Part shown: piece after piece, positions 5,168-64,000 of the stretch
Numbering within the stretch: position 1 is the first letter of the stretch
Layout of the letters: each line of letters starts with the position of its first letter
Source: a virus
IMG/VR virus record: IMGVR_UViG_3300037485_001282
Span: 64,001 to 128,000 of that record
Direction: 5' to 3' (one strand)
DNA: 64,000 nt
Translations under genes and position numbers: made by a program
Notes under the pieces: model-generated
What the model saw: the letters and a program-made list of their open reading frames with translations, nothing else
Told to the model about the DNA's origin: nothing
Database searches by the model: none

Positions 5168-6280
5168 TTATTGTTTTGTGGTATTTGAAAGTAAACTATT
5201 AGCCCGTTTTGCCATATTACTTATCTCATCGGATGAAATATCATTATCTTGAATTGTTAGATCAACCTTAGTATCTTTATGTCTAAAATTTTCAATCTGT
5301 TTCTGTAAATCTTCATCATTATATTCTTCGGATATTCCACTTGGATCCCTTTGATTTATAGCGGCTAATTCAGCTTGATCTAATTCATATACGGACCCTA
5401 ATCTTTCCATTTTCGGTGGTTCTGGTTTTACTTGATTCCCAGCCATAGTTGCCATCATCTTAGCCATCATTTCCATAAACATTTGTGGATTGGCTGCCAT
5501 TTGAGAAAACGCTTCTGGCGTCACGTTTTGATTGGTTTGATCATTTCCTAAAAGTTTTCTGTCTGCCGCAGATAATGGCCCAATATCCTTTTTATCTACT
5601 TTAGTAACATAATCCTCTGGAAGCGTTGGTGGAACGTGACTATATTCTACGGCACTTTCTGTCCCATACTGATCCCTTGCCATTAAGTTATCTCTTGATA
5701 TTGGTTGTTGTCCTGGAAGGCTTTCTCTTGGGCCTGGGATATAGTTCCACACTAATCCTGGTTTACTAAGAATTGGTAAAATTTGGGTTAAATTGGTTGC
5801 TCTTGTTGCCGCCGCAATTACTTGAATCAATCCTCTCGAACCTGGATTAGTTGCTGTAAGCGTTCTCCAAAAAAGACCCTTCGCTGTTGCAATATCTGGG
5901 GCATTAACTATAGAGAACGTCTTTAGTCCCAGTGGCATACCCAATGCCTTTGCGTTTAACTCGTTACCAGGGGAACTATCATTATCATCTTTAGCTTGCT
6001 TTGAAGATGACATACTTTTAGTATCTACTACTATAAGCCAATAGTTTCTTAAGTTGTTTAAATCCATTTTTATTTCCTTCGGTTGTTGAATATCTACTTT
6101 TTTTAACTCGGCGTTTTTTGTTTTAATCTCTTCTTTAATTACGTTACTTTTATTAGAGTCAGAAACATTCCATAGAATTTTTACTTCTATTTTTTGTTTT
6201 TTTCTAGTAAAAATTCCTTTTAGCCATTTTAGCAAAGCAATCTCTTTTACCCAATTTCGGTCATAACTGCGTCTAAGCAC
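5168..6280 (-). CDS. hypothetical protein inserted between gp44 and gp62 (true start may be downstream, e.g. ATG 6067)
   Basis: Long ORF co-oriented with the operon; Met/Gln-rich low-complexity C-terminus; AAGGA precedes ATG 6067. Confidence 0.6.
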   Translation of the reverse strand: MLRRSYDRNWVKEIALLKWLKGIFTRKKQKIEVKILWNVSDSNKSNVIKEEIKTKNAELKKVDIQQPKEIKMDLNNLRNYWLIVVDTKSMSSSKQAKDDNDSSPGNELNAKALGMPLGLKTFSIVNAPDIATAKGLFWRTLTATNPGSRGLIQVIAAATRATNLTQILPILSKPGLVWNYIPGPRESLPGQQPISRDNLMARDQYGTESAVEYSHVPPTLPEDYVTKVDKKDIGPLSAADRKLLGNDQTNQNVTPEAFSQMAANPQMFMEMMAKMMATMAGNQVKPEPPKMERLGSVYELDQAELAAINQRDPSGISEEYNDEDLQKQIENFRHKDTKVDLTIQDNDISSDEISNMAKRANSLLSNTTKQ

Positions 6281-7137
6281 GCCATGAAGTTTATTTCTGG
6301 GTCTATTATTATACTATGTCGGTAAAGATATTCAGCGACGATTCCCCGAATTGTAATAAATTTAGTATCTGATAGAGTTTCTGAATTATCGAACAATATT
6401 TTATATAATTCAACATAGTCCAACTTACCAACTATACTAGATCTTATTGAATTCCATTGTTTAGTTTTTACTAATTCCATAAAATTTTCTTGAATCCCGT
6501 TACTGGAAACAGTAAAATCAAAAACACCATTTAAACAGTTTCTTTCCATTTCATTTATTGTTTTTCTAATATCTGGATGAAACTTCTTAACTAGAGAAAC
6601 CAGTCCATTAATATCTTTAATTTTTATATTCTCTTGCTTAAGAATATCCATACACCGTTTACAAACTAATTTGGGTGATGAATCGGTAAACCGAAACATC
6701 TGAGTTCTTGATTTAATGGCATCCATTACTTTATTAATATAGTTACAAGTAAAGATAAATCTACACGATTCTGTAAATTCTTCAATAACATTTCTAAGTG
6801 TCGCGTGTGAATTAATAGACATGAAATCAAATTCATCTAATATAACTACTTTTAAATTATCACCAAATGATGACGTGGAACAAAAGTTAGCCACTTTTCC
6901 ACGTATAACATCTACCGATGTTTCAGAAGAAGCACAAATATATAGAATATCTTCGGTAATCTTTTTAGATAAAATTTTAGCTATTGTGGTTTTACCCAAC
7001 CCAGAAGTACCATAAAATAACAAATGAGGTATTGATTTCTTTTCAATAAAAGAATTAAAAATATTCTTATCCTCTTCAGATAAGATACAATCATTTATCT
7101 CTTGTGGTCGATACTTTTCTACAAAAGGAATTGACAT
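6247..7137 (-). CDS. gp44: clamp loader AAA+ subunit (gp44)
   Basis: VEKYRP, GTSGLGKTT Walker A, ILDEFD Walker B, SRT and PDIRK RFC motifs. Confidence 0.95.
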   Translation of the reverse strand: MSIPFVEKYRPQEINDCILSEEDKNIFNSFIEKKSIPHLLFYGTSGLGKTTIAKILSKKITEDILYICASSETSVDVIRGKVANFCSTSSFGDNLKVVILDEFDFMSINSHATLRNVIEEFTESCRFIFTCNYINKVMDAIKSRTQMFRFTDSSPKLVCKRCMDILKQENIKIKDINGLVSLVKKFHPDIRKTINEMERNCLNGVFDFTVSSNGIQENFMELVKTKQWNSIRSSIVGKLDYVELYKILFDNSETLSDTKFITIRGIVAEYLYRHSIIIDPEINFMACLDAVMTEIG

Positions 7138-7145
7138 GGTTATCC

Positions 7146-7895
7146 TTAAATCGTTGTTTTAATGTAAAAATTGGTTGTGTATAATGGATGAATTCCATCA
7201 ATGTGAATCATATCTTTACAAATACCAATAATAAATTTATCGAAACTAGAAGAAGCCAATATAGGTAAAATATGCTGTTTATTTACGACTAACTTAAAGT
7301 CCTCGGTTGGTTTTGATGATACTATTTTTTGGTTAAATGAGTTTGCTTTTATGTCCTTTTCAGTGACTACTAAAGTAGTAATTTCCGAATTGGTGCTCCC
7401 TTTTAAAACTATGAACTCATTATTTAATAATGGTATCGCTTTAATAAAAGGCTTGTAGTTTTCGGGAGCGAAATCAAATTTTTGAATATATTTAAGCGGA
7501 GCACTAAGACACTCTGGGGCTTTTCGTATTGTCTTTAGGTTAGAAGAATAGAATTCATATTCAGATTCACTTACTCTAATTATTAACTTTTCTGGAGATA
7601 TTAACAACTCAAACCCAGTTTTAAATAATGAAAGAAAAGAAACCAGTTCATCTGAGTTATAAACACCAAATTTAAATTCTTGAGAAGACTCACATTTATC
7701 CAAGTATTCACCATTGAATGTTACTATGCTTATAATAGATTTAGATTCATTAACGGCTGAGATCTTTAAACTCTTATCTTCAGTAAAATGAAATGCAAAT
7801 TGATTACATCCTATCTTCTGCAAGTCTCTTAGAGACAGATAGAGAGCCTCGGCTTTTATGTCATCGAAATTACCTGAAAATAAAAATTCGCTCAT
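7146..7895 (-). CDS. gp45: sliding clamp (gp45-like)
   Basis: 249 aa, FKFGVYNSDELVSFLSLF motif, directly upstream of gp44. Confidence 0.7.
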   Translation of the reverse strand: MSEFLFSGNFDDIKAEALYLSLRDLQKIGCNQFAFHFTEDKSLKISAVNESKSIISIVTFNGEYLDKCESSQEFKFGVYNSDELVSFLSLFKTGFELLISPEKLIIRVSESEYEFYSSNLKTIRKAPECLSAPLKYIQKFDFAPENYKPFIKAIPLLNNEFIVLKGSTNSEITTLVVTEKDIKANSFNQKIVSSKPTEDFKLVVNKQHILPILASSSFDKFIIGICKDMIHIDGIHPLYTTNFYIKTTI

Positions 7896-53701: not shown

Positions 53702-55336
53702 ATGCCAATTAGTTACAATGTTAAGGGAATGAAAAGACCAAACGAGGTGACTGAATATACTCCAGAAATGCTTCAGGAGTATGTTAAATGCGCCACCGAT
53801 ATTATTTATTTTGCGGAGAATTATTACTATATAACATCTACACATAACAATAAAGGAAAACAGTTAGTTGAATTATATGATTTCCAGAAGGATATTTTAC
53901 ATGGATTAGTTAACAACGATCATGTTATTCTTAATGCAGCTAGACAGGTTGGTAAATCTACGTGTTCTTGTATTTTTTTATTGTGGTATGCTTTATTTAA
54001 TAAAGATATTGAAATTGCGATATTGGCTAATAAACAAAGAACAGCAACCGAATTAATGGGTGACGTAAAAAATGCTTATTTGGAGTTACCTAATTGGCTA
54101 AAACCAGCGCCATTGAAATATGATGAACTAAACATTGAATTTGATAGTGGAACTAAAATTATTGCGGCAGCAACATCAAAAGACGCTATACGTGGTAGGT
54201 CCATATCAGCCCTACTAATTGATGAGTTCGCACATTTACCAACCAACATAGCCGAAGAGTTCTGGACTGCTGTTTTGCCAACAATTTCCAACGGTGGTAA
54301 GTGTATAGTTGTATCAACCCCCAACGGCGCTGGTGGATTATTCTACGATCTATGGAGAAAAGCAACACTTAAGATAGAAGATTGTGATTTTATTCCGTTT
54401 AAGGCGCGATGGGATGTAGTTCCTGGTAGAGACGAATCATGGAAGAAGAAAATGATGTCTTCTATGAACTCTATCGTTAAGTTTAATCAGGAATTTGAAT
54501 GTAACTTCTCAGGATCTTCCAATACACTTATAGAAGGAAATACGTTGGAACGTTTAGTTTCTCAAGTTCCTTTATTAGTGCCTGAAGAGGGATACAGTAT
54601 TTGGAAGGCACCTCAGAGGAATCGAATTTACTTAGCGTCTTGTGACGTTGCTAAAGGTGTTAATAGTGACTTCTCGGTAGTTGACATTTATGATGTTACT
54701 ACTTGGCATGTTAATGGAAGATATGATCAAGTTGCTCAGCTACGAACTAATTCACTTGCGTTACTTCCAGAGTTTAAACCCAAAGTAGTTCAGATTTGTC
54801 GTCAGTGGAATAATTGTGCTCTAATAATCGAGAATAATAACTTAGGCGATGTATTAGCTAAAGCGATTCATGAAGAAGATGAATACGAGAATCTTTATTA
54901 TGACTATGACCGAAAGGAAATAGGAGTAAATGCTAATGTTAAAACGAAACCATTAGCTTGTAGGCACTATAAAGAAGATTTAGAGACTAGCGTATTAACT
55001 ATAAGATCTACTGATACTATAAAGGAACTGGCAACATTCGAAGAAGTAATGAGTGGGGTATTTAAGGCGCGTAAAGGAAACGCTTTTCATGATGATACAG
55101 TAACTGTAGGATATTGGGCTGCTTATTGTTTGAGATCGAAGTGGTGGGAAGATCATTTGCATGATATTAGAAAAAATAGCAAAGTAGCTTTATTAGGAAG
55201 TGGATCTAAGAGTTCTCTGATAAATACTCAAGTTAAGGATCCTGACGAAGAAAGTATGAGTAGATTCATGAATATGTTTGACGACAACTTTGAAGACGAA
55301 TTAAAAGGATTTACTGCTGGTCTTGGGAAATTCTGA
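53702..55336 (+). CDS. gp17: terminase large subunit gp17
   Basis: LYDFQ, ARQVGKST, LIDEFAH, VSTPNG, QEFEC, DVAKG, IENN and HDD motifs; no intein. Confidence 0.96.
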   Translation: MPISYNVKGMKRPNEVTEYTPEMLQEYVKCATDIIYFAENYYYITSTHNNKGKQLVELYDFQKDILHGLVNNDHVILNAARQVGKSTCSCIFLLWYALFNKDIEIAILANKQRTATELMGDVKNAYLELPNWLKPAPLKYDELNIEFDSGTKIIAAATSKDAIRGRSISALLIDEFAHLPTNIAEEFWTAVLPTISNGGKCIVVSTPNGAGGLFYDLWRKATLKIEDCDFIPFKARWDVVPGRDESWKKKMMSSMNSIVKFNQEFECNFSGSSNTLIEGNTLERLVSQVPLLVPEEGYSIWKAPQRNRIYLASCDVAKGVNSDFSVVDIYDVTTWHVNGRYDQVAQLRTNSLALLPEFKPKVVQICRQWNNCALIIENNNLGDVLAKAIHEEDEYENLYYDYDRKEIGVNANVKTKPLACRHYKEDLETSVLTIRSTDTIKELATFEEVMSGVFKARKGNAFHDDTVTVGYWAAYCLRSKWWEDHLHDIRKNSKVALLGSGSKSSLINTQVKDPDEESMSRFMNMFDDNFEDELKGFTAGLGKF

Positions 55337-55442: not shown

Positions 55443-57446
55443 ATGGCACTTTCACCTGGAATCGAATCGATTGAACGCGATATAACAGTAAGAATTCCAA
55501 CAGTAACATCAAGTGTTGGTGCGATTGTTATTGCTGCTGAGAAGGGTGCTATAAACAAGCCCCTTTTAATTAACGACGAAAAACAATATAGAGAAACTTT
55601 TGGTGAGCCTGATGATGTCAATTATCGTCACTGGTTTACTGGAGCAGCTTTCCTAAAATCGTCTGATCAACTTTGGGTTGTTCGTACTGAAGATAAGACA
55701 AAAATGGTTGCTGGTTTAACTATCGGAACTTCTGGTGGTCTTACTTCTTGTGGAACTCCTCTAATCAGTTCTTACCCAACACCAAAAGCATCCGAATACT
55801 TCCCATTAAGTTACGATAATGTCAGTGACGAGGAAGCAAAAGTTGGATCTGTTCCAGTATTCAATACTGGAAACGGCAAAGAAATTTTCCACATTTATGC
55901 TGTTGGTGCTGGTCCATATTACGAAGGAGTTGAAGTTGTTACAATCAACTCTCTCGACTATAAGACACTTTTAGAACTTAAAGAAGAATATGTTCAAGCC
56001 ACAACTACTCAACAAAAACAAGCAGTTGCTAAGAAATACTACACTGGAACTCCAGCAACTTCTGCTGATGCAATTTGGGCTGGTTCTACTGCCCCAGCAT
56101 CTGGCGATGCTTACTACGTTGACAGCGGCAACTATCTTGCTTGCTCATTAATTAAAGACGATGTTATTTCTTCCGAAGTTGTTGATAATCAAGTAGTTTG
56201 GTCAGTTGATACTGGTCTTTTGAATACTTATACTTCATTCTCATTCGGCCCACAAGCAAATTACGACTCAAACACCAGAGTATATAGTAATAGTGATGAG
56301 TTCGCAGTCATGGTATTTGATCCAAACGGCAATCTCGCTGAACAATATATTGTATCAAATGAAATCGATAAGTTAAATGACGCTGGTCAGAAAATGTTCG
56401 CTCCAGATGTAATCAATGAAAGCAGTAACTTCATTTATTTCTTCATCGGTGGGGATCCTTCTGAGGCTGGTGGAATTGAGCCAGTAACAACTGGTAAAGT
56501 TAACTTGGCTGGCGCTGACGCATTAACCACAGACTTGTCACAATTAAGTGGCGAGATCGAAGAACAATGGAGAGAATGGTTTGCTAATAAAGAAACCTAT
56601 CAAATCGACTTAACTTTCGATCCCGACTATCCAACTGTTCTCAAACAAGCATTGGACGATATTAGCAAAAATATTCGTAAAGACTGTTTTACCCTTTTGA
56701 ATGTTCCTGAAAGCGTAATGGTAAATACTTCTACTCATCGCCCAATCGCACAATATATTACTTCAATGAAGAACTATGTTGCAAATACTCTTAATATTGA
56801 TTCATCTTACTCAGCAATTTATGGACAATATTTCAAGATTTATGATAGATTCAATGAAAAGAACCGTTGGGTTCCTGTTACTGGATATGTCGCTGCTAAT
56901 ATAGCAACTTCGGATTTCAGTACTGCACAATGGAATGCTCCTGCTGGTTTTGCTAGAGGCGTAATTGACGGAATAGTTGATGTTGCAATTACTCCATCCC
57001 AAGCACAGCGCGATGTTATGTACTCAAATAAGATCAATGCTATTGTTAACTTTAATGGTCAAGGCATCGTTATTTGGGGACAAAAGACTATGCAAGGTCG
57101 CCCAAGTGCATTCGATAGAATCAATGTTCGTAGATTGTTCCTACACCTCGAAAGAAGTATCGAAAAGTTAGCTAGATATTTCATCTTCGAAATTAACGAC
57201 GAAACCACAAGATCAAGATTCCGTGGAATTGTTAATGGTTTCTTGGCAGAAATCAAATCTCGTAGAGGCGTAACTGATTTCTTAGTAGTTTGTGACTCAA
57301 CTAATAACGGTCCAGATGTTATTGATCGAAATGAATTTGTTGCTGAAATTTTAGTTAAGCCAAGCAGAGCAATCGAATTCGTTAGACTCGTATTTACTGC
57401 TGTTAGTACTGGGGTTAGTTTCTCAGAAGTAGTTGGTAGAGGTTGA
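55443..57446 (+). CDS. gp18: tail sheath protein gp18
   Basis: LSPGIESIERD, FGEP, LWVVR, WNAPAGFARG, WGQKT and FDRINVRRLF motifs; late promoters at 55347 and 55406. Confidence 0.97.
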   Translation: MALSPGIESIERDITVRIPTVTSSVGAIVIAAEKGAINKPLLINDEKQYRETFGEPDDVNYRHWFTGAAFLKSSDQLWVVRTEDKTKMVAGLTIGTSGGLTSCGTPLISSYPTPKASEYFPLSYDNVSDEEAKVGSVPVFNTGNGKEIFHIYAVGAGPYYEGVEVVTINSLDYKTLLELKEEYVQATTTQQKQAVAKKYYTGTPATSADAIWAGSTAPASGDAYYVDSGNYLACSLIKDDVISSEVVDNQVVWSVDTGLLNTYTSFSFGPQANYDSNTRVYSNSDEFAVMVFDPNGNLAEQYIVSNEIDKLNDAGQKMFAPDVINESSNFIYFFIGGDPSEAGGIEPVTTGKVNLAGADALTTDLSQLSGEIEEQWREWFANKETYQIDLTFDPDYPTVLKQALDDISKNIRKDCFTLLNVPESVMVNTSTHRPIAQYITSMKNYVANTLNIDSSYSAIYGQYFKIYDRFNEKNRWVPVTGYVAANIATSDFSTAQWNAPAGFARGVIDGIVDVAITPSQAQRDVMYSNKINAIVNFNGQGIVIWGQKTMQGRPSAFDRINVRRLFLHLERSIEKLARYFIFEINDETTRSRFRGIVNGFLAEIKSRRGVTDFLVVCDSTNNGPDVIDRNEFVAEILVKPSRAIEFVRLVFTAVSTGVSFSEVVGRG

Positions 57447-57489
57447 ATTAGGTAGGTCAGATTAGATTAAATAAACACAGGAGAAAACC

Positions 57490-58152
57490 ATGCCATTCCC
57501 ATCAGACGTAGAATCAATGAATCTTTATAGTTTCCGTCAAACTATTAGAGATGTTAGTCGTCCTTATCTGTTTATGGTCGAGATGCCAAATATTGATACT
57601 AGTGCCGCTAAGTTAACCGCTTTTGCGAGAACTACATCATTACCAAAGTATTCTCTTTCTACAATTGATATTCCGTTTCAATCACAGAAACTTAAATTGG
57701 CTGGTCCAGCTAACATTGAAGGAACTTGGCAGGTTGAGTTTCTCTGTGACGAACTACATACTTTACGAAATAAATTCCTTAGTTGGGCTCAGATTGGGTT
57801 CGATATTCAAAGACTTCAAGCTGGTGCTCCGTCTTCTTATAAGTATGATTTAGCTAAAGTTGTTCAATTAGCTCGTAATGGCGCTAGAATTGCACAATAT
57901 CAGTTCGTTGGCCTATTCCCAACTTCAGTTGGTGAAATTCAATTATCACACGAAGAACAAGGTTACGCTAAGTTCCCAGTAGAATTCGCGTATGATTACT
58001 ATACTATCGATCAAGCAAATTCATTTGACGTTAACTCAAGTGCATTCCAAATTGGCGCTACTGGTATTGGTGCTACTACTGACTTGGCTGCATTGGCTGG
58101 CGCAACTAATATCAATGAAGTAACTGGTACTATTGGTAACAACGGGGGCTGA
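57490..58152 (+). CDS. gp19: tail tube protein (gp19-like), copy 1
   Basis: SRPYLFMVEMP, TSLP, LKLAG, WQVEF, GLFPTSVGEIQLS and FPVEFAYDY motifs. Confidence 0.9.
   Translation: MPFPSDVESMNLYSFRQTIRDVSRPYLFMVEMPNIDTSAAKLTAFARTTSLPKYSLSTIDIPFQSQKLKLAGPANIEGTWQVEFLCDELHTLRNKFLSWAQIGFDIQRLQAGAPSSYKYDLAKVVQLARNGARIAQYQFVGLFPTSVGEIQLSHEEQGYAKFPVEFAYDYYTIDQANSFDVNSSAFQIGATGIGATTDLAALAGATNINEVTGTIGNNGG
57571..57590 (+). other. TTTAT plus near-match (14/15 nt) to the predicted TnpB guide
   Basis: TTTAT-GGTCGAGATGCCAAA versus guide GATCGAGATGCCAAA. Confidence 0.75.
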
Positions 58153-58174
58153 GATTAATTTTTAAGATCGATTT

Positions 58175-58215
58175 ATTAGCCCTAGATCGAATTAAACGAT
58201 CTGGGGCTAATTTTT
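58175..58215 (+). terminator. intrinsic terminator between the two tube genes
   Basis: ATTAGCCCTAGATCG/CGATCTGGGGCTAAT stem followed by TTTT. Confidence 0.8.
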
Positions 58216-58224
58216 AAGGAAAAA

Positions 58225-58935
58225 ATGCCATTCCCATCTAATAATCTTTACAATAAAGATAACGACATGAATCTTCTTGATTTCAGGAAGATAATTAATG
58301 ACGTTTCTAGATCTTATTTGTTTATGTTGGAGATGCCGAACATCGATACCGATGCGAGAAAATTAACATCATTCGCTAGATCAACGACAATGCCTGGATA
58401 TAATATCGAAGAAACTTCTTTTAAATTTCAAACAGCTACAATAAAACTAGGCTATGGGGCTACTTTTAATGATTGGACCGTTGAATTTTTAAACGATCAA
58501 GTTTATTCTTTAAGAAGTAAATTTTTGGCTTGGATGTCGCAAATATATGATCCAGTTAGAGTTATGTCAATGTCAGCCAATTCCTATAAGTATGATGGTG
58601 TTAAAATTCATCAATTATCTAGAACTGGGAAAAAAGTTCAAACATGTCAATTTGTTGGGCTATTTCCTAAATCAATATCAGATATTAACTTAAAACACGA
58701 TGCGACTGAATTGCAGACATTTACGGTTAATTTCGCTTATGATTATTTTACTATTGATTCTGGAAACCCTCTGGAAGCGACAATAGACCTCGCTACAGGA
58801 AATACGGACGGAAATGGTATAGGATTGAGTGGGATCGTGGGAAGAGCGCCAGCAGCGGGAACTCCGCAAAATAACGTAGCTGGAGTATTTGATGTATATG
58901 GTGGAATGAAGAAAGCAAAATCCGCATTAATATAA
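58225..58935 (+). CDS. tail tube protein (gp19-like), copy 2
   Basis: Clear paralog of 57490-58152 (MPFPS, DVSR.YLFM.EMPNIDT, QFVGLFP, FAYDY). Confidence 0.88.
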   Translation: MPFPSNNLYNKDNDMNLLDFRKIINDVSRSYLFMLEMPNIDTDARKLTSFARSTTMPGYNIEETSFKFQTATIKLGYGATFNDWTVEFLNDQVYSLRSKFLAWMSQIYDPVRVMSMSANSYKYDGVKIHQLSRTGKKVQTCQFVGLFPKSISDINLKHDATELQTFTVNFAYDYFTIDSGNPLEATIDLATGNTDGNGIGLSGIVGRAPAAGTPQNNVAGVFDVYGGMKKAKSALI

Positions 58936-58950
58936 AAAATATCTTTTATA

Positions 58951-58980
58951 TTGTCAATAAAATTTAGTTTATGATATAAT
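58951..58980 (+). promoter_or_regulatory. sigma70-type promoter of tnpB (probably leaderless mRNA)
   Basis: TTGTCA, 18-nt spacer, TATAAT; ATG 6 nt downstream with no SD. Confidence 0.6.
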
Positions 58981-58986
58981 ATTACC

Positions 58987-60117
58987 ATGAACCTGACCAT
59001 TAAATGTAAACTATTAGCTAACCAAGAACAACATCAGCAATTGCGGGACGTAATGATAGCATTTAATAATGCTTGTAACTGGGTTAGTGAAGTTTGTTTT
59101 AATAAAAAGATTTTTAATAAGTTCGGACTACATAAAGAAGTTTATTACGAAACAAGACAGCGTTTTAATCTTTCTAGTCAGATGGTTATTCGAGTAATAG
59201 GCAAAGTAGCGGATAGTTATAAAGATTTTAAAAAGCGAGAAACCCAGCACGAATTTAAAGATTTAGGGGCAATCGATTACGACGAAAGAAATTTCGGAGT
59301 CAAAAAAGATGGAATTTCTATTTCTATCTTAGGTGGAAGAACAATAATGGATTATCGTTCAAGAAAACCTCTCTCAGAATACAAAATTTGTAGCCAGTGC
59401 AAACTATCCTATGATAAGCCAAAGAACAAGTTTTATGTTTTGTTGTCGGTTGAAGAGATGGAACCAGTTCCAGATAAAGTTGAAAATTTTATTGGTGTTG
59501 ATATGGGAATTGTTAAGTTGGCAACTTGTTCTGATGGAGAAATTTTTACTGGTGAAGCAGTTGAGAATCATAGAGTTAAACTAACATTATTAAAGACGAA
59601 ATTGCAGAGTAAGGGAAGTAAGTCAGCGAAACGGCATTTAAAAAAGATTTCGAGAAAAGAAGGAAGGTTTAAGAGAGATGTAAATCATTGTATTAGCAAG
59701 AAGATAGTAAAGAAAGCAAAGGCACTTGGCGTCGGGGTAAAGATCGAAGATCTTTCTTTTGACAACAAAGAACCAGTTATGAAGTTTAACCAGAAACAGC
59801 GTGATAATAACGCTAAGATGGGTAAATGGGCTTTCGGTCAATTGACCAACTATCTTGGGTATAAGGGGAAAAGAGCAGGAGTTCCTGTTTTGTTTGTTAA
59901 TCCCGCTTATACTTCGCAAAAATGCAGCAAGTGTGGACATACTGAAGAAGATAACCGTCTGTCCCAATCTGAATTCTGTTGTATATCCTGTGGATACAAA
60001 GAAAACGCAGATATTAATGCTGCAATTAATATTTCTCGGGCTGCCGTCAACCAGCCTATTGTAGCCACTAGAAAAAGTGCGTTACAAGCCCCGCTATTAA
60101 TTGGTGTGGGTAGTTGA
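58987..60117 (+). CDS. tnpB: TnpB RNA-guided endonuclease (IS200/IS605 family), solo, catalytic residues intact
   Basis: TIKCKL N-terminus, RuvC-I GVDMG, RuvC-II IEDL, VNPAYTSQKCSKCG...CISCG Zn finger, RuvC-III NADINAAINI. Confidence 0.95.
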   Translation: MNLTIKCKLLANQEQHQQLRDVMIAFNNACNWVSEVCFNKKIFNKFGLHKEVYYETRQRFNLSSQMVIRVIGKVADSYKDFKKRETQHEFKDLGAIDYDERNFGVKKDGISISILGGRTIMDYRSRKPLSEYKICSQCKLSYDKPKNKFYVLLSVEEMEPVPDKVENFIGVDMGIVKLATCSDGEIFTGEAVENHRVKLTLLKTKLQSKGSKSAKRHLKKISRKEGRFKRDVNHCISKKIVKKAKALGVGVKIEDLSFDNKEPVMKFNQKQRDNNAKMGKWAFGQLTNYLGYKGKRAGVPVLFVNPAYTSQKCSKCGHTEEDNRLSQSEFCCISCGYKENADINAAINISRAAVNQPIVATRKSALQAPLLIGVGS

Positions 60118-60138
60118 CGATCGAGATGCCAAAAGATT
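60040..60138 (+). ncRNA. TnpB omegaRNA/reRNA 3' scaffold and guide (5' boundary uncertain)
   Basis: GTCAAC(60046)/GTTGAC(60113) pairing; ACAAGCCCC...GGGTAGTTGAC right-end motif; guide predicted to start at 60119. Confidence 0.7.
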
Positions 60139-60168
60139 AAAGACAAAAACCAACAAGGAGACATTCAA

Positions 60169-60966
60169 ATGTCAGATCGACCAACTTTTTCAGCTAGTGA
60201 CTTAAAGAAACTATTAGCTACTAAATCTTCCCCAGAGAATGTAGTAAAACTATGCTACAGTCAAAGAGAAGTTTATATTAAGCCAATTAAGATTAAGGAT
60301 AAGAAAGAAATCTTAAAGTCCATTGAAACTAAGAATGAAGTAGTTATCAATAAAGCCTTTGATGATATTTTGGAAAAATTCGTAGAAGCCGTAGATGGTC
60401 AAGAGTTTACTATTGGTGAACTTACGACTCAGGAACGTCAGCAACTTTTAGTTCATATTAAAGTCGCCGCTTCGGGAACTAACGCTAATATTATGCACGA
60501 ATGTCCAGCATGTGGCGACGTTAATCAGAATATTAAATATGATTTATCAAAAATGTACGTGAAGAACTACGTGAAGCCAGAAACTGGAGAAGAGATAATT
60601 ATTTCCACTCTCTCAGGAACCATTAAGGTTAAATTAGGTCCAGTTACAAGAAATAAAGAAATTGAGATTGAAAACTATATTAAGCGAAACAAGATAACGC
60701 AAACAACCGAAAAGAACTTCGTCATGATGGCTGCTGCTATTAAATCAATTTCTATTGTTCAGGATGATATAGAGAATGAAGTTAGCATGAGTATGGCGGA
60801 ATTAATTGATATTTTCGATAGTTTACCAGAGAATGAACTTGAGAAAATAATGAATTATTTCAAGTCTTCTGACTTCGGAGCAAAAATGCCGTTTGATTTT
60901 AAGTGTCAAAAATGTGGACACGAATCAGAACAAGAGGTCAACGTTATAGCTTTTTTTATCAATTGA
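60169..60966 (+). CDS. gp26: baseplate hub assembly / tail chaperone (gp26-like)
   Basis: YIKPIKIKD.K.IL, L...ERQQLLVHIK, CPACG and CQKCG Zn ribbons, terminal FF. Confidence 0.75.
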   Translation: MSDRPTFSASDLKKLLATKSSPENVVKLCYSQREVYIKPIKIKDKKEILKSIETKNEVVINKAFDDILEKFVEAVDGQEFTIGELTTQERQQLLVHIKVAASGTNANIMHECPACGDVNQNIKYDLSKMYVKNYVKPETGEEIIISTLSGTIKVKLGPVTRNKEIEIENYIKRNKITQTTEKNFVMMAAAIKSISIVQDDIENEVSMSMAELIDIFDSLPENELEKIMNYFKSSDFGAKMPFDFKCQKCGHESEQEVNVIAFFIN

Positions 60967-61244
60967 TGCTAATGAACTCCTGTTACCAGCAGGAGCTTAA
61001 TTATGAAATAGAGTTACTCTGTTGGGGTGATAAGTTATTTACTTACTCCGAAGTAGAAAATCTAGATACTCATGAGTTTGAAGTGTTTAGGACTATCTTT
61101 AAGGAAAAAGCAGAGTCAGAAGCTAAAGCCAAGCAAGAGTTCATTAAAAATACTTTTGAATTTGCTAGAAAATGCGTAGAAGTCATTTGTAAAACTATTT
61201 CAGGTGCGTTCGGAACAAAAACGACTTCTAATAAAGTTAATTGA
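60966..61244 (+). CDS. small hub assembly protein (gp51-like), or -1 frameshift extension of the upstream gene
   Basis: FTYSEVENLDTHEFEVF pattern; TGATG overlap; open in the -1 frame across the T7 run. Confidence 0.6.
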   Translation: MLMNSCYQQELNYEIELLCWGDKLFTYSEVENLDTHEFEVFRTIFKEKAESEAKAKQEFIKNTFEFARKCVEVICKTISGAFGTKTTSNKVN

Positions 61245-61272
61245 TTTTTAATTTTTATAAATAAAGATAATT

Positions 61273-64000
61273 ATGGCTTCAAATTTCACCACAGATCAAC
61301 TTAAAAAGATGCTTCAAGAGAACCAAGCGAAATTGGATTCTCTTGACTCATCTGATATAGTTGCTTCTAAGGAACTAAAAAAGTCTATTGATAAGATCTC
61401 TAAGTTACTTTTAAGGACCGAGAAAGGTATCTTAAAGGAACTTAAAGAATCTAATAAAAAGAATCAAAAGAAAAAAGATGACTCAGTAGATATTAAACGT
61501 TTAGCCGAAGAAAATAAAAAGGATCTTAAGAATAGGTTTTCTGAGTTTTATCAGAGAAATCAATTAAATAGAAAAGCTATCAACGATTCATATATTAGAA
61601 AAATCGACGATATAAATCATAGATATAAAAAGGATCTTAGAAAAGCGTTTTCTACTTTAAATGAAAATTTGCACGCAGATATTTTAGTAAATCAGAAAGT
61701 TATTGAAAAATATCTTAATAGATTTGCTGACTATATGACCGAAAAAATAACGAAAGTATTTAATGTTGCTTTTAGTTATTTAAAAAACGCTACATTAAAC
61801 GCTTTTAGTAAAATTAAAGGATTAGTCACATCATTAGGAGATAAGTTAGGTTCTGTTATTAAAGGTACTTGGGAGAAACTTAAAGGAGCTATATTTCATC
61901 CAATTGATTCAGTTAAGACTATAATTAGTAACTCTTTAAGTTATGTTTGGCAAGGTATAAAGAAAATAGGATCATTAATAAAAGATGCTTTCGTGTTTGT
62001 GATAAAGAAAATTTGGGAAGGACTTAAATGGGTAGCTGGGGTTATTTGGGGAGTTATTAAAATTGGATTTAAATTAATGTGGACTATATTATCTGGTATT
62101 GGAAAATTCGTATTCTCCATGTTTAAGTGGATAAGCACATTTTTACTAAAGGTTATATGGGGAACTTTGGTTAAGATAACATCCTTTTTATTGTCTGCTA
62201 TTTGGGAAGGAATTAAAACAGTAGGTTCTTTTTTAATGTCTGTTATGTGGGCGACTATAAAAGGAATCGCTAAAACCGTTTTCCAAATAGCTTTTACAAT
62301 AGTTAAAACAATTGCCAATATGGTAGTGACGTTAATTACATCGGCATTAGCTCCTTGGTTGGGGCTAATAGCTCTTGTAGGTGCTGGTGTTTACCTTTTA
62401 GGTTACTGGATGGGTTGGTGGGGTAGCAAGGGAAACAGTGAAACATCGAAAGCAGGAATTAATGTTGGTGGAAAAGAAATAAAACAAGGTGGAATATTTG
62501 AAACTATTGGAAATTGGGTTAAGAAAGCACTGGGGATAGGTGAGTCTTTTGCTGTTTGGTTATGTGATCAAATAGTATGGGCTTGGGATAAACTGTGGGT
62601 GGTTATTAAGAAGACGTGGGGGATTACCACTGACTTTGGTGGTTGGATTCTTGATCAGCTTAAGATTTTTTGGAACTGGGCAACATCAAAAGAAAAAAGA
62701 GACGATTATAGACTTTTTGAAAAAAATATTGAGTTTTATGAAAAACAATTAGAAAACTTAATGATGCTAGATCCAGACAAGATAAAGGAATATACAGAAA
62801 ACCTAAAAGCTGATAAAGTTTCATTAGAAAAACTATCAGACACAATGCCTTTATTATCTAAGCTCATTATAAAAATAGAAGATATGTGGACGAAGTATAT
62901 TAAACCAATAATCAATGATGTAATTAAAAAGATAGAATCGGCGTGGGAGTGGATAAGTAGTTTAGTAAAAGGAAAAGGTAGTTGGTCTTCGCCCGATGAA
63001 AATAGTATATTGGGGTCTATATATAAATCATTATTTGGAACAAATTCAATTAACTGGGCGTCTCCGTCATATGATAGTTTATTGGGTCAAATTTATAACA
63101 TAATATTTGGTAAAAACACTATTGATTTTAAATCAAGTCTGGGATTAGTTGGGTTTATATATAGCACAATATATGATATTAATTTCTTTATTATAGATTC
63201 GATAGAAAAATACATACTTCCTGTTTTTAATTCGATAATGGATTTTCTTTCTAATATCATAGAAATCATTAGTCCAGATTATGCTGAAAAAGTTAGTCAA
63301 ATTTCTGGTTCGGTTAAATTAAATATATCTAATAGAGTTTCTGAAGCTAAAGGATTTCAATTAACAAACACCAAAGAAAAAATATCCGAGTTATCCGAAT
63401 CCATAAAATCGCCAAGTAACGGTGAGTCAAAAGAACATTTTGAAAAAAGAAAAGAAGAAACAGAAAAACTAATAAAGGCATTGGAATCTAAAGTTGGCGG
63501 AAGGGAAAAATCAGATAACGAAAAGAAGCGAGCGGAGAAATCATTTGCTATTGCGTTAAGAAACACCACAAAAGTACTATCTGGATTACAAGTTTCGGTA
63601 AGTTCTTTATTAGGATCTACGTTAGACGAAAATCAAATTAAGGCGTTATCGAATAGACCAAGAAATTTTTGGAAAAGTAGGGGATTTGATACTGATTTTG
63701 TAAATACTCCATTAGATGCTTATTCAGAGTTGAGAGATTTATATTTAGCTAAGGATAAAAGTTACTATGGTAAAAACCTAAAAAACCTTCAAGCGGATTT
63801 TAATAAAAACAATCCAGATTGGAAAAAGTATATAGACAAAGATTTAATTGGAAAATTAAATACTATGCGGTCTAGTATAGACGAAAACAGATTACAAATT
63901 CAAGAATCACTAGATAATATGTATGAACAGAAGGCATCTAGTTTGGCTACTGGGTGGAGTTTTGGAAAAAAAGAATTAAATTGGTATAAAAAAGACGCCG
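61273..64000 (+). CDS. tape measure protein (runs off the window)
   Basis: Late promoter at 61256; frame open where spot-checked through to the window end; Trp/Phe-periodic amphipathic repeats (IWEGLKWVAGVIWGVIK) and a hydrophobic segment; follows the tail chaperones. Confidence 0.8.
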   Translation, partial: MASNFTTDQLKKMLQENQAKLDSLDSSDIVASKELKKSIDKISKLLLRTEKGILKELKESNKKNQKKKDDSVDIKRLAEENKKDLKNRFSEFYQRNQLNRKAINDSYIRKIDDINHRYKKDLRKAFSTLNENLHADILVNQKVIEKYLNRFADYMTEKITKVFNVAFSYLKNATLNAFSKIKGLVTSLGDKLGSVIKGTWEKLKGAIFHPIDSVKTIISNSLSYVWQGIKKIGSLIKDAFVFVIKKIWEGLKWVAGVIWGVIKIGFKLMWTILSGIGKFVFSMFKWISTFLLKVIWGTLVKITSFLLSAIWEGIKTVGSFLMSVMWATIKGIAKTVFQIAFTIVKTIANMVVTLITSALAPWLGLIALVGAGVYLLGYWMGWWGSKGNSETSKAGINVGGKEIKQGGIFETIGNWVKKALGIGESFAVWLCDQIVWAWDKLWVVIKKTWGITTDFGGWILDQLKIFWNWATSKEKRDDYRLFEKNIEFYEKQLENLMMLDPDKIKEYTENLKADKVSLEKLSDTMPLLSKLIIKIEDMWTKYIKPIINDVIKKIESAWEWISSLVKGKGSWSSPDENSILGSIYKSLFGTNSINWASPSYDSLLGQIYNIIFGKNTIDFKSSLGLVGFIYSTIYDINFFIIDSIEKYILPVFNSIMDFLSNIIEIISPDYAEKVSQISGSVKLNISNRVSEAKGFQLTNTKEKISELSESIKSPSNGESKEHFEKRKEETEKLIKALESKVGGREKSDNEKKRAEKSFAIALRNTTKVLSGLQVSVSSLLGSTLDENQIKALSNRPRNFWKSRGFDTDFVNTPLDAYSELRDLYLAKDKSYYGKNLKNLQADFNKNNPDWKKYIDKDLIGKLNTMRSSIDENRLQIQESLDNMYEQKASSLATGWSFGKKELNWYKKDA

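Follow-up and report, generated by a model that had tools for sequence, protein, structure and literature searches.

The locus described here lies in a 64,000-nt stretch of viral DNA (the window), bases 64001-128000 of the 143.7-kb IMG/VR virus record IMGVR_UViG_3300037485_001282, which is about 79% complete. It holds a tnpB gene set among the tail genes of a T4-like phage, and the predicted guide of the associated omegaRNA resembles the neighbouring tail tube genes. In window positions, the large terminase (53702-55336) and sheath (55443-57446) genes are followed by tail tube gene 1 (tube 1; 57490-58152, 220 aa), an open reading frame (ORF) with a weak Pfam match to Phage_T4_gp19, the L174 homologs of which are labelled Phage_TTP_2, and by tail tube gene 2 (tube 2; 58225-58935, 236 aa), assigned from its ORF and a Pfam scan. 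Then come native intergenic DNA (58936-58967), tnpB (58987-60117, 376 aa), the 3' part of the omegaRNA scaffold (60038-60118), the predicted guide (60119-60138), a T4_baseplate-family gene (60169-60966, Pfam), which in relatives directly follows tube 2 or a third tube gene, and a long gene starting at 61273. All features from tube 1 to the baseplate-family gene are on the plus strand. The window was compared with loci from related phages and metagenome contigs, designated by L-numbers (L008, L174, L189 and so on). GenBank phages gave no megablast match to 57400-60300, and the GenBank phage homologs found by tblastn are all less than 45% identical.

The product of tnpB contains OrfB_IS605 and Cas12f1-like_TNB domains (Pfam E-values of 2e-12 and 3.5e-24), and the RuvC residues D172, E254 and D342 are unchanged across an alignment of 24 homologs. 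The Y1 transposase (PF01797) is absent from the whole 143.7-kb record. The spacer between tube 2 and tnpB is 51 nt long and contains a sigma-70-like promoter (58951-58980; TTGTCA, an 18-nt spacing and TGaTATAAT, 11 of 12 consensus matches), the -35 box of which is provided by the native intergenic DNA. It lacks the left-end hairpin (GGCAAGGAAACCC...GGGAGGAATTGCC) of the relatives, found in L176, L179, L095 and others. These features, namely the intact catalytic triad, the missing tnpA, the promoter and the absent hairpin, had been pointed out in the original prediction and all were seen again. On the branch of the window copy the gene has evolved under purifying selection: 23 synonymous versus 5 non-synonymous changes are unique to the window copy (omega of about 0.06), and the pairwise ratio of non-synonymous to synonymous substitution rates between copies is 0.05-0.10.

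The promoter region differs among copies. In those with an intact left end (L176:2555-2576, L178:85-110, L179:2623-2644), the start of tnpB is closely preceded by the T4-type late-promoter motif TATAAATA, and in the window the same motif stands before the terminase, sheath and 61273 genes, with 17 of its 19 matches on the plus strand. Copies with a decayed left end (window 58972-58980, L174) carry TGaTATAAT in its place, and this difference may mean a different timing of expression. Public-metagenome contigs aligned to the window showed no variant at position 57577 and no joints, and the RNA contigs came from a relative only.

Several lines of evidence place the 3' end of the scaffold. Among about 25 homologs with 54-95% identity, the conserved 3' region ends in GGTAGTTGA(C/T) (GGTAGTTGAY), with complete divergence thereafter; the blastn block between the window and the sister copy in L174 spans exactly 58972-60118; and public-metagenome contigs carrying other copies leave the window sequence at 58972/58986 and 60117-60119. 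A five-helix scaffold structure across 19 sequences is 94.9% paired and has compensatory changes in 13 pairs, and none of 500 shuffles was as good. In this structure the helix formed by GTCAAC (60046-60051) and GTTGAC (60113-60118) is 99% paired, and its outermost pair covaries (A-U in 11, G-C in 7). Since homolog conservation, the blastn block, the contig breaks and the covarying helix all end at about 60118, the guide, GATCGAGATGCCAAAAGATT, is predicted to start at 60119, in agreement with the boundary proposed originally. Rfam yielded no match to an omegaRNA family and no intron match in 57000-61500. The top of the terminal right-end/omegaRNA hairpin (60089-60110) is altered in the window, where the clade-invariant CCCTTTAGGG has become TATTAATTGG with the pairing kept. 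This change fits a loss of TnpA recognition with the RNA structure preserved.

The transposon-adjacent motif (TAM) was sought upstream of the left-end hairpins. Of 19 independent elements, 13 have a TTNAT pentamer in the 16 nt that precede the hairpin foot, against 0.15 expected; it reads TTCAT in ten of them and TTTAT in three. In the nearest subgroups the register of the pentamer is constant, its end lying 7 nt before the foot of the hairpin; at this register TTCAT is present in L176, L095, L097 and L098, and TTTAT in L174, whose TnpB is 94% identical to that of the window, and in L096. On this evidence TTTAT, which had been called TAM-like, is a real TAM type for the clade, and the predicted clade TAM is TTCAT or TTTAT (TTYAT). 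With one mismatch in 16, the guide of L096 (3869-3888 and 5133-5148) is the reverse complement of the left-end hairpin of the same element, probably owing to an insertion adjoining or inside the end of another copy.

The element is found elsewhere in sister phages. The 90%-identity cluster of the window TnpB has ten members, and copies 88-92% identical in DNA occupy five sites: the window; L174/L175, antisense between sheath and terminase; L176/L177, near a RuvB-like gene and adjoining an unrelated complete IS200/IS605 element; L178, adjoining a RegA-like gene; and L179/L180, near tail-fibre genes. Further copies with other flanks are present on metagenome contigs. The occurrence of TnpBs this similar at five or more sites indicates a mobile IS605-type element. 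Its left-end hairpin is full in L176 and L179, half in L174 and missing in the window. The unrelated element (L176:210-1690, L177:3634-5114), encodes a Y1 TnpA and a TnpB bearing a helix-turn-helix and is separated by about 900 nt from the tnpA-less copy, to which it might supply TnpA in trans. The phage contig L007, which encodes a 66%-identical homolog of the window TnpB, also has a serine-recombinase (Resolvase) gene followed by an IS607-like tnpB fragment (6248-7453).

In L174 (5840-7400; compare window 55181-55336), tnpB lies antisense in a duplicated 3' end of the terminase gene comprising the last 55 or so codons. The duplicated end is of the window/L189 type and is split directly after ...VKDP, and the functional terminase upstream has a divergent C-terminal region of about 60 aa with a new tail. 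In L189 the terminase gene is intact and agrees with the L174 guide in 19 of 20 nt, but the target is flanked by TTCGT rather than TTYAT. The window and L174, two of the five sites, thus have in common that an additional copy of a conserved structural gene is involved. Duplication of flanks as a clade-wide feature was considered and rejected: L174 alone has a gene-end duplication, the signals in L176 and L101 are repeated regulatory motifs, and that in L179 is not significant.

The match of the guide to the tube genes, on which the original prediction was built, is real. Nucleotides 1-15 agree in 14 of 15 positions with a site in tube 1 (57571-57590, TTTAT+GGTCGAGATGCCAAA) that lies directly 3' of TTTAT, encodes F-M-V-E-M-P and is mismatched at guide position 2. 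With at most one mismatch in 15, 0.008 matches would be expected on both strands of the genome, and one is seen. The homologous site in tube 2 (58321-58340, TTTAT+GTTGGAGATGCCGAA) is mismatched at guide positions 2, 4 and 13. All three tube paralogs of the group, the third of which is described below, share this motif at one and the same codon position, and tube alleles vary only at guide positions 2, 4, 7 and 13 (and 16). With so few variable positions, a guide taken from any paralog matches every tube gene in at least 11 of 15 nt and can match some allele perfectly. The predicted isoleucine allele of a phage lacking tnpB does exist: tube 1 of L189 reads TTCAT-GATCGAGATGCCAAAC, a 15/15 match to the guide (GATCGAGATGCCAAA) behind the commonest TAM of the clade, and L189 has no tnpB at the tube or terminase site within the 7.6 kb examined. 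Guide nucleotide 16 (A, in a Lys codon) fits the third paralog (P-K) and not tube 1 or tube 2 (P-N), and nucleotides 16-20 match no tube 1 allele.

What distinguishes the window from its relatives is the content of the interval between tube 2 and the baseplate-like gene. The more distant L008-L010, with tube 1 about 80% identical in protein, have tube 2, a 42-nt spacer and the baseplate-like gene. The guide sequence is absent from this spacer, and to this extent the original view that the guide does not reflect an intergenic empty site stood. The close relatives tell otherwise. In L174/L175 and L189/L190, which have 83-98% DNA identity to the window backbone and 95-100% to each other, a 160-aa ORF (tube 3; L174:1694-2176, minus strand, and L189:4001-4483) occupies exactly the position of tnpB. 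Its identity is 32% to tube 1 and 31% to tube 2 (E-values of 1e-20 and 5e-24), and it carries the same TAM and motif, ...CCGTATTTGTTTAT immediately followed by GGTTGA(T/A)ATGCC(G/A)AAAA..., encoding F-M-V-D/E-M-P-K. Tube 3 forms only two protein clusters in 5.8 billion sequences and is absent from L008-L010; IMG/VR searches for related loci with the baseplate-like protein and with tube 3 returned nothing. The ribosome-binding site (RBS) and first 13 or so codons of tube 3 duplicate the start of the downstream baseplate-like gene, so that tube 3 is bounded by a direct repeat of about 50 nt.

The tube 3 locus was aligned after the cassette (58973-60118) had been taken out of the window. On the left, native intergenic DNA extends to about 58967 and is followed by a gap over the tube 3 RBS and its first 20 codons. 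In the middle, GTTTAT+GATCGAGATGCCAAAA (GTTTATGATCGAGATGCCAAAA) of the window falls on the tube 3 motif, so that TTTAT at 58968-58972 corresponds to the TAM of this motif (in L174, ...TTGTTTAT followed by GGTTGAT...), and guide nucleotides 1-16 are collinear with F-M-x-E/D-M-P-K. Compared with TTTAT and G.T.GA.ATGCC.AAAA of L174 and L189, TTTAT plus the guide has 3-4 mismatches in 16. The left end of the element, expected after TTTAT, is deleted. After a further gap of about 390 nt, AAACCAACAAGGAGACA falls on the 3' end of tube 3 and on the RBS that belongs to the following gene (60145-60168; AAAAACCAACAAGGAGACATTCAA versus AGAAACTAACAAGGAGACACCTA in L174). The window thus retains both outer junctions of tube 3, DNA upstream of it on the left and the end found in L174/L189 on the right, which indicates that its ancestor had tube 3 and that tnpB sits in the remains of this gene at the motif TAM. 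The predicted order of TAM, element and guide is the canonical IS605 geometry. The local score of the left flank against the L189 intergenic DNA is not better than that of shuffles; its homology follows from the L174 blastn block, which ends at 58960, and from the comparison with several relatives, including the L008/L009 empty site. A left junction at another TTTAT (58945-58949) was rejected, as 58940-58967 fits native intergenic DNA of L174, L189, L008 and L009 better. The tube genes appear to be covered by a local mosaic or hypervariable zone (window 57437-58800): L174 and L189 are 95-100% identical in the sheath and baseplate genes and only 83-94% in parts of tube 1 and tube 2.

We therefore consider that the window probably contains an immobilised IS605-type tnpB whose guide is a fossil of its insertion site in a lost tube paralog. 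According to this explanation, a tnpA-less IS200/IS605-type element consisting of tnpB and the omegaRNA would have spread through a clade of T4-like phages from freshwater sediment and inserted directly 3' of a TTYAT TAM, the TTT-ATG of the F-M-x-E/D-M-P motif, in a third, dispensable tube paralog between tube 2 and the baseplate-like gene. Later deletions would have taken the left end and most of tube 3, leaving a minimal cassette of promoter, tnpB, omegaRNA scaffold and about 16 nt of flank. The likeness of the guide to tube 1 (14/15) and tube 2 (12/15) follows if the guide is tube 3 flank and the paralogs share the motif. Selection acts on both the nuclease gene and the scaffold, which are intact. 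The ribonucleoprotein (RNP) would cut element-free DNA that has TTYAT and a guide match, with repair from the element-bearing genome, that is, by homing of the transposon type; without a left end and tnpA, recombination would be the only route by which this copy spreads. The resident tube genes would be spared by their mismatches, at position 2 in tube 1 and at positions 2, 4 and 13 in tube 2. Cutting of tube 1 alleles of relatives, such as that of L189, is possible as a by-product of paralogy, not as a designed retargeting. The claim that the guide had been redirected away from its own insertion site is thus not supported, since the closest relatives have the paralog at that very site and the window keeps both of its outer flanks, in essence an outcome that the original prediction itself had counted as refuting.

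The body of tube 3 is missing from about guide nucleotide 17 onwards (window 60134-60136). TnpB of ISDra2 cuts its target near guide nucleotide 17, and the correspondence could be a repair scar or a coincidence.

Some observations weigh against this explanation. IMG/VR searches revealed no tube 3 allele with the exact guide and no exact empty site. The AT-rich right remnant (60134-60153) does not align to the 3' end of tube 3 better than shuffles do. The first 15 nt of the guide are closer to tube 1 (15/15 in L189, 14/15 in the window, 13/15 in L174) than to tube 3 (12/15 and 11/15), and it is possible that the flank derives from tube 1 or underwent gene conversion from it. The explanation also needs two deletions that both stop at functional edges of the cassette, which hints at selection to keep the guide. 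Finally, cleavage, omegaRNA and homing are predictions from sequence.

Some of these observations give weight to the view, close to that of the original prediction, that the immobilised cassette is a dedicated nuclease for homing or competition, kept because its RNP cuts tube 1 (TTYAT-GATCGAGATGCCAAA) of co-infecting relatives. Repair from the carrier would then spread the resistant tube allele together with the cassette 1.4-2.6 kb downstream, or the rival would simply be damaged, and the carrier would be protected by the mismatch at guide position 2. We regard this as unlikely. In its favour, tube 1 of the cassette-free sister L189 has TTCAT+GATCGAGATGCCAAAC, a 15/15 target with the TAM most often seen in the clade, and the known tube 3 alleles are less like the guide than tube 1 is. 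Purifying selection acts on tnpB even though the left end is missing and the top of the right-end hairpin has decayed, and the deletions have left exactly promoter, gene, scaffold and some 16 nt of guide. Relatives share kinds of sample, and one Logan run (ERR4869827) gave both L180 and L190; the 19/20 match of the L174 guide to the intact L189 terminase is a parallel. For Dra2 TnpB, a heteroduplex of about 12-16 bp is reported to be enough for cleavage and mismatches at guide positions 1-4 to abolish unwinding (PMC12803034), so that the RNP could cut an L189-type tube 1 and spare its own. On the other hand, the position of the guide is already explained by the insertion history, guide nucleotides 16-20 have no match in any tube 1 allele, exact TTTATGATCGAGATGCCAAA has no matches in IMG/VR and no 20-nt target was found there. 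A search with the degenerate pattern F-M-[VI]-[ED]-M-P-K gave eight loci, each with 5 or more mismatches in 20, and none of them is clearly tube 3. Ordinary insertion sequence copies, too, usually have their tnpB under purifying selection, and the L189 terminase target has the wrong flank. The resident GGTC (V) allele of tube 1 also occurs in L174/L175, where tnpB occupies another site and its guide is a different one. Since L174 has it without tnpB at the tube site, V is not a specific escape mutation, and the idea of an adaptive self-immunity is not supported. Nor is a general pattern of guides matching adjacent genes: of 103 distinct guides surveyed from tnpB loci of phages and metagenomes, the window guide has a near-match next to a TAM in the locus fetched, and none of the other 102 does. 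The most far-reaching form of the idea is that a lytic T4-like phage retains a transposon-derived TnpB, stripped of every means of transposition, as an RNA-guided intronless homing nuclease, its fossil guide cutting the essential tube 1 of sisters such as L189 and so driving the resistant allele and cassette into rivals or excluding them, and that tnpB of this clade would colonise conserved structural genes (tube, terminase) by pairing insertion with a duplicate or paralog; this, too, we hold to be rather doubtful.

The closeness of the guide to tube 1 could also have arisen if the element had first inserted into tube 1 of an I-allele phage, which alone would be lethal, and was then moved by ectopic recombination via the motif, taking very short flanks of tube 1 along, to the position of the dispensable tube 3. 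This is compatible with a guide that is 15/15 to a tube 1 allele and 11-12/15 to tube 3 alleles. In L174, an old terminase 3' end split by the element stands beside a divergent functional 3' end, which shows that phages of this clade can survive an insertion into an essential gene through duplication or recombination. Such a course is improbable: a direct insertion into tube 3 would take fewer events, nucleotide 16 of the guide agrees with tube 3, and a 15/15 match is weak evidence when the motif has few variable positions. The original prediction had added that cleavage-free binding of the RNP might tune expression of the resident tube genes. This would resemble TldR, and short or partial matches can indeed bind without cutting, as TnpB of ISDge10 does with a 10-nt guide (PMC13507860). 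The RuvC triad of the window protein is nevertheless intact, unlike that of TldR, the sites lie about 85 nt inside coding regions and not at promoters, and the resident sites are mismatched at guide position 2, within the region where mismatches are reported to prevent unwinding (PMC12803034), which makes such tuning very improbable. Chance resemblance would have nothing but the AT-rich composition in its favour; given the 0.008 matches expected in the genome and the motif at the same codon position in three tube paralogs, it is effectively refuted. Overall, what the original prediction had observed was right, and its interpretation was right in part, as regards the guide boundary, the TAM and the active-looking nuclease, though not the retargeting or the self-immunity.

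The closest known system is the IS200/IS605 TnpB of the ISDra2 type, including tnpA-less copies that persist by RNA-guided homing. The two share the OrfB_IS605 and TNB domains with a D-E-D RuvC triad, an omegaRNA that overlaps the 3' end of the gene with the right-end flank as guide, and a 5-nt T-rich TAM directly 5' of the left end (predicted as TTYAT in the clade, TTGAT in ISDra2); similar subterminal hairpins at the left and right ends are found in the relatives of the window copy. The window copy differs in that its left end is gone and the top of its right-end hairpin is mutated, because of which TnpA could not move it, and in residing in a phage of virulent, T4-like type. Its guide also resembles essential tube copies because the insertion site is a paralog of an essential structural gene. 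TnpB transposon homing is established (PMC10055086, PMC10690162), and phages that co-infect are counted among the conceivable targets of 'non-restorative transposon homing' in a 2026 review (PMC13565253). The concept is therefore not new, whereas a natural example would be.

The SegF, SegG and MobE nucleases of T-even phages, which cause intronless homing and localized marker exclusion, are similar in that the nuclease gene lies between conserved structural genes and is absent from relatives, as the cassette is from the collinear L008-L010, with the 42-nt spacer, and L174/L189, with tube 3 instead. A potential target is likewise found in a nearby conserved gene of relatives, and the resident allele differs at the site. 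Recognition in the window system, however, would depend on an RNA guide and a TAM and not on a protein, its origin would be a transposon insertion, its cleavage and co-conversion are predictions, and the potential target is 1.4 kb from the left edge of the cassette. The TldR proteins, nuclease-dead TnpB-like repressors of prophages that target host fliC, are also phage-borne and have guides matching a structural gene with a paralog, but they have lost the RuvC residues and have promoter targets, whereas in the window the triad is intact and the match is inside coding sequence. IStrons, which combine a group I intron with IS605 tnpB, are alike as IS605-type elements tolerating life inside genes; the window locus differs in having no intron, and the gene that was struck was lost, not spliced.

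A caution for similar loci is that a guide matching a neighbouring gene can stem from paralogy. If tnpB does serve homing in the window, this would be a natural RNA-guided homing or interference system between phages, with the L189 tube 1 as target allele, a resistant allele differing by one seed mismatch and a compact cassette. If the fossil-guide explanation that we favour is true, the locus would record the natural history of IS605 tnpB in lytic phages: five sites, a TTYAT TAM, a left end lost step by step and a guide left over as the fossil of a deleted gene.

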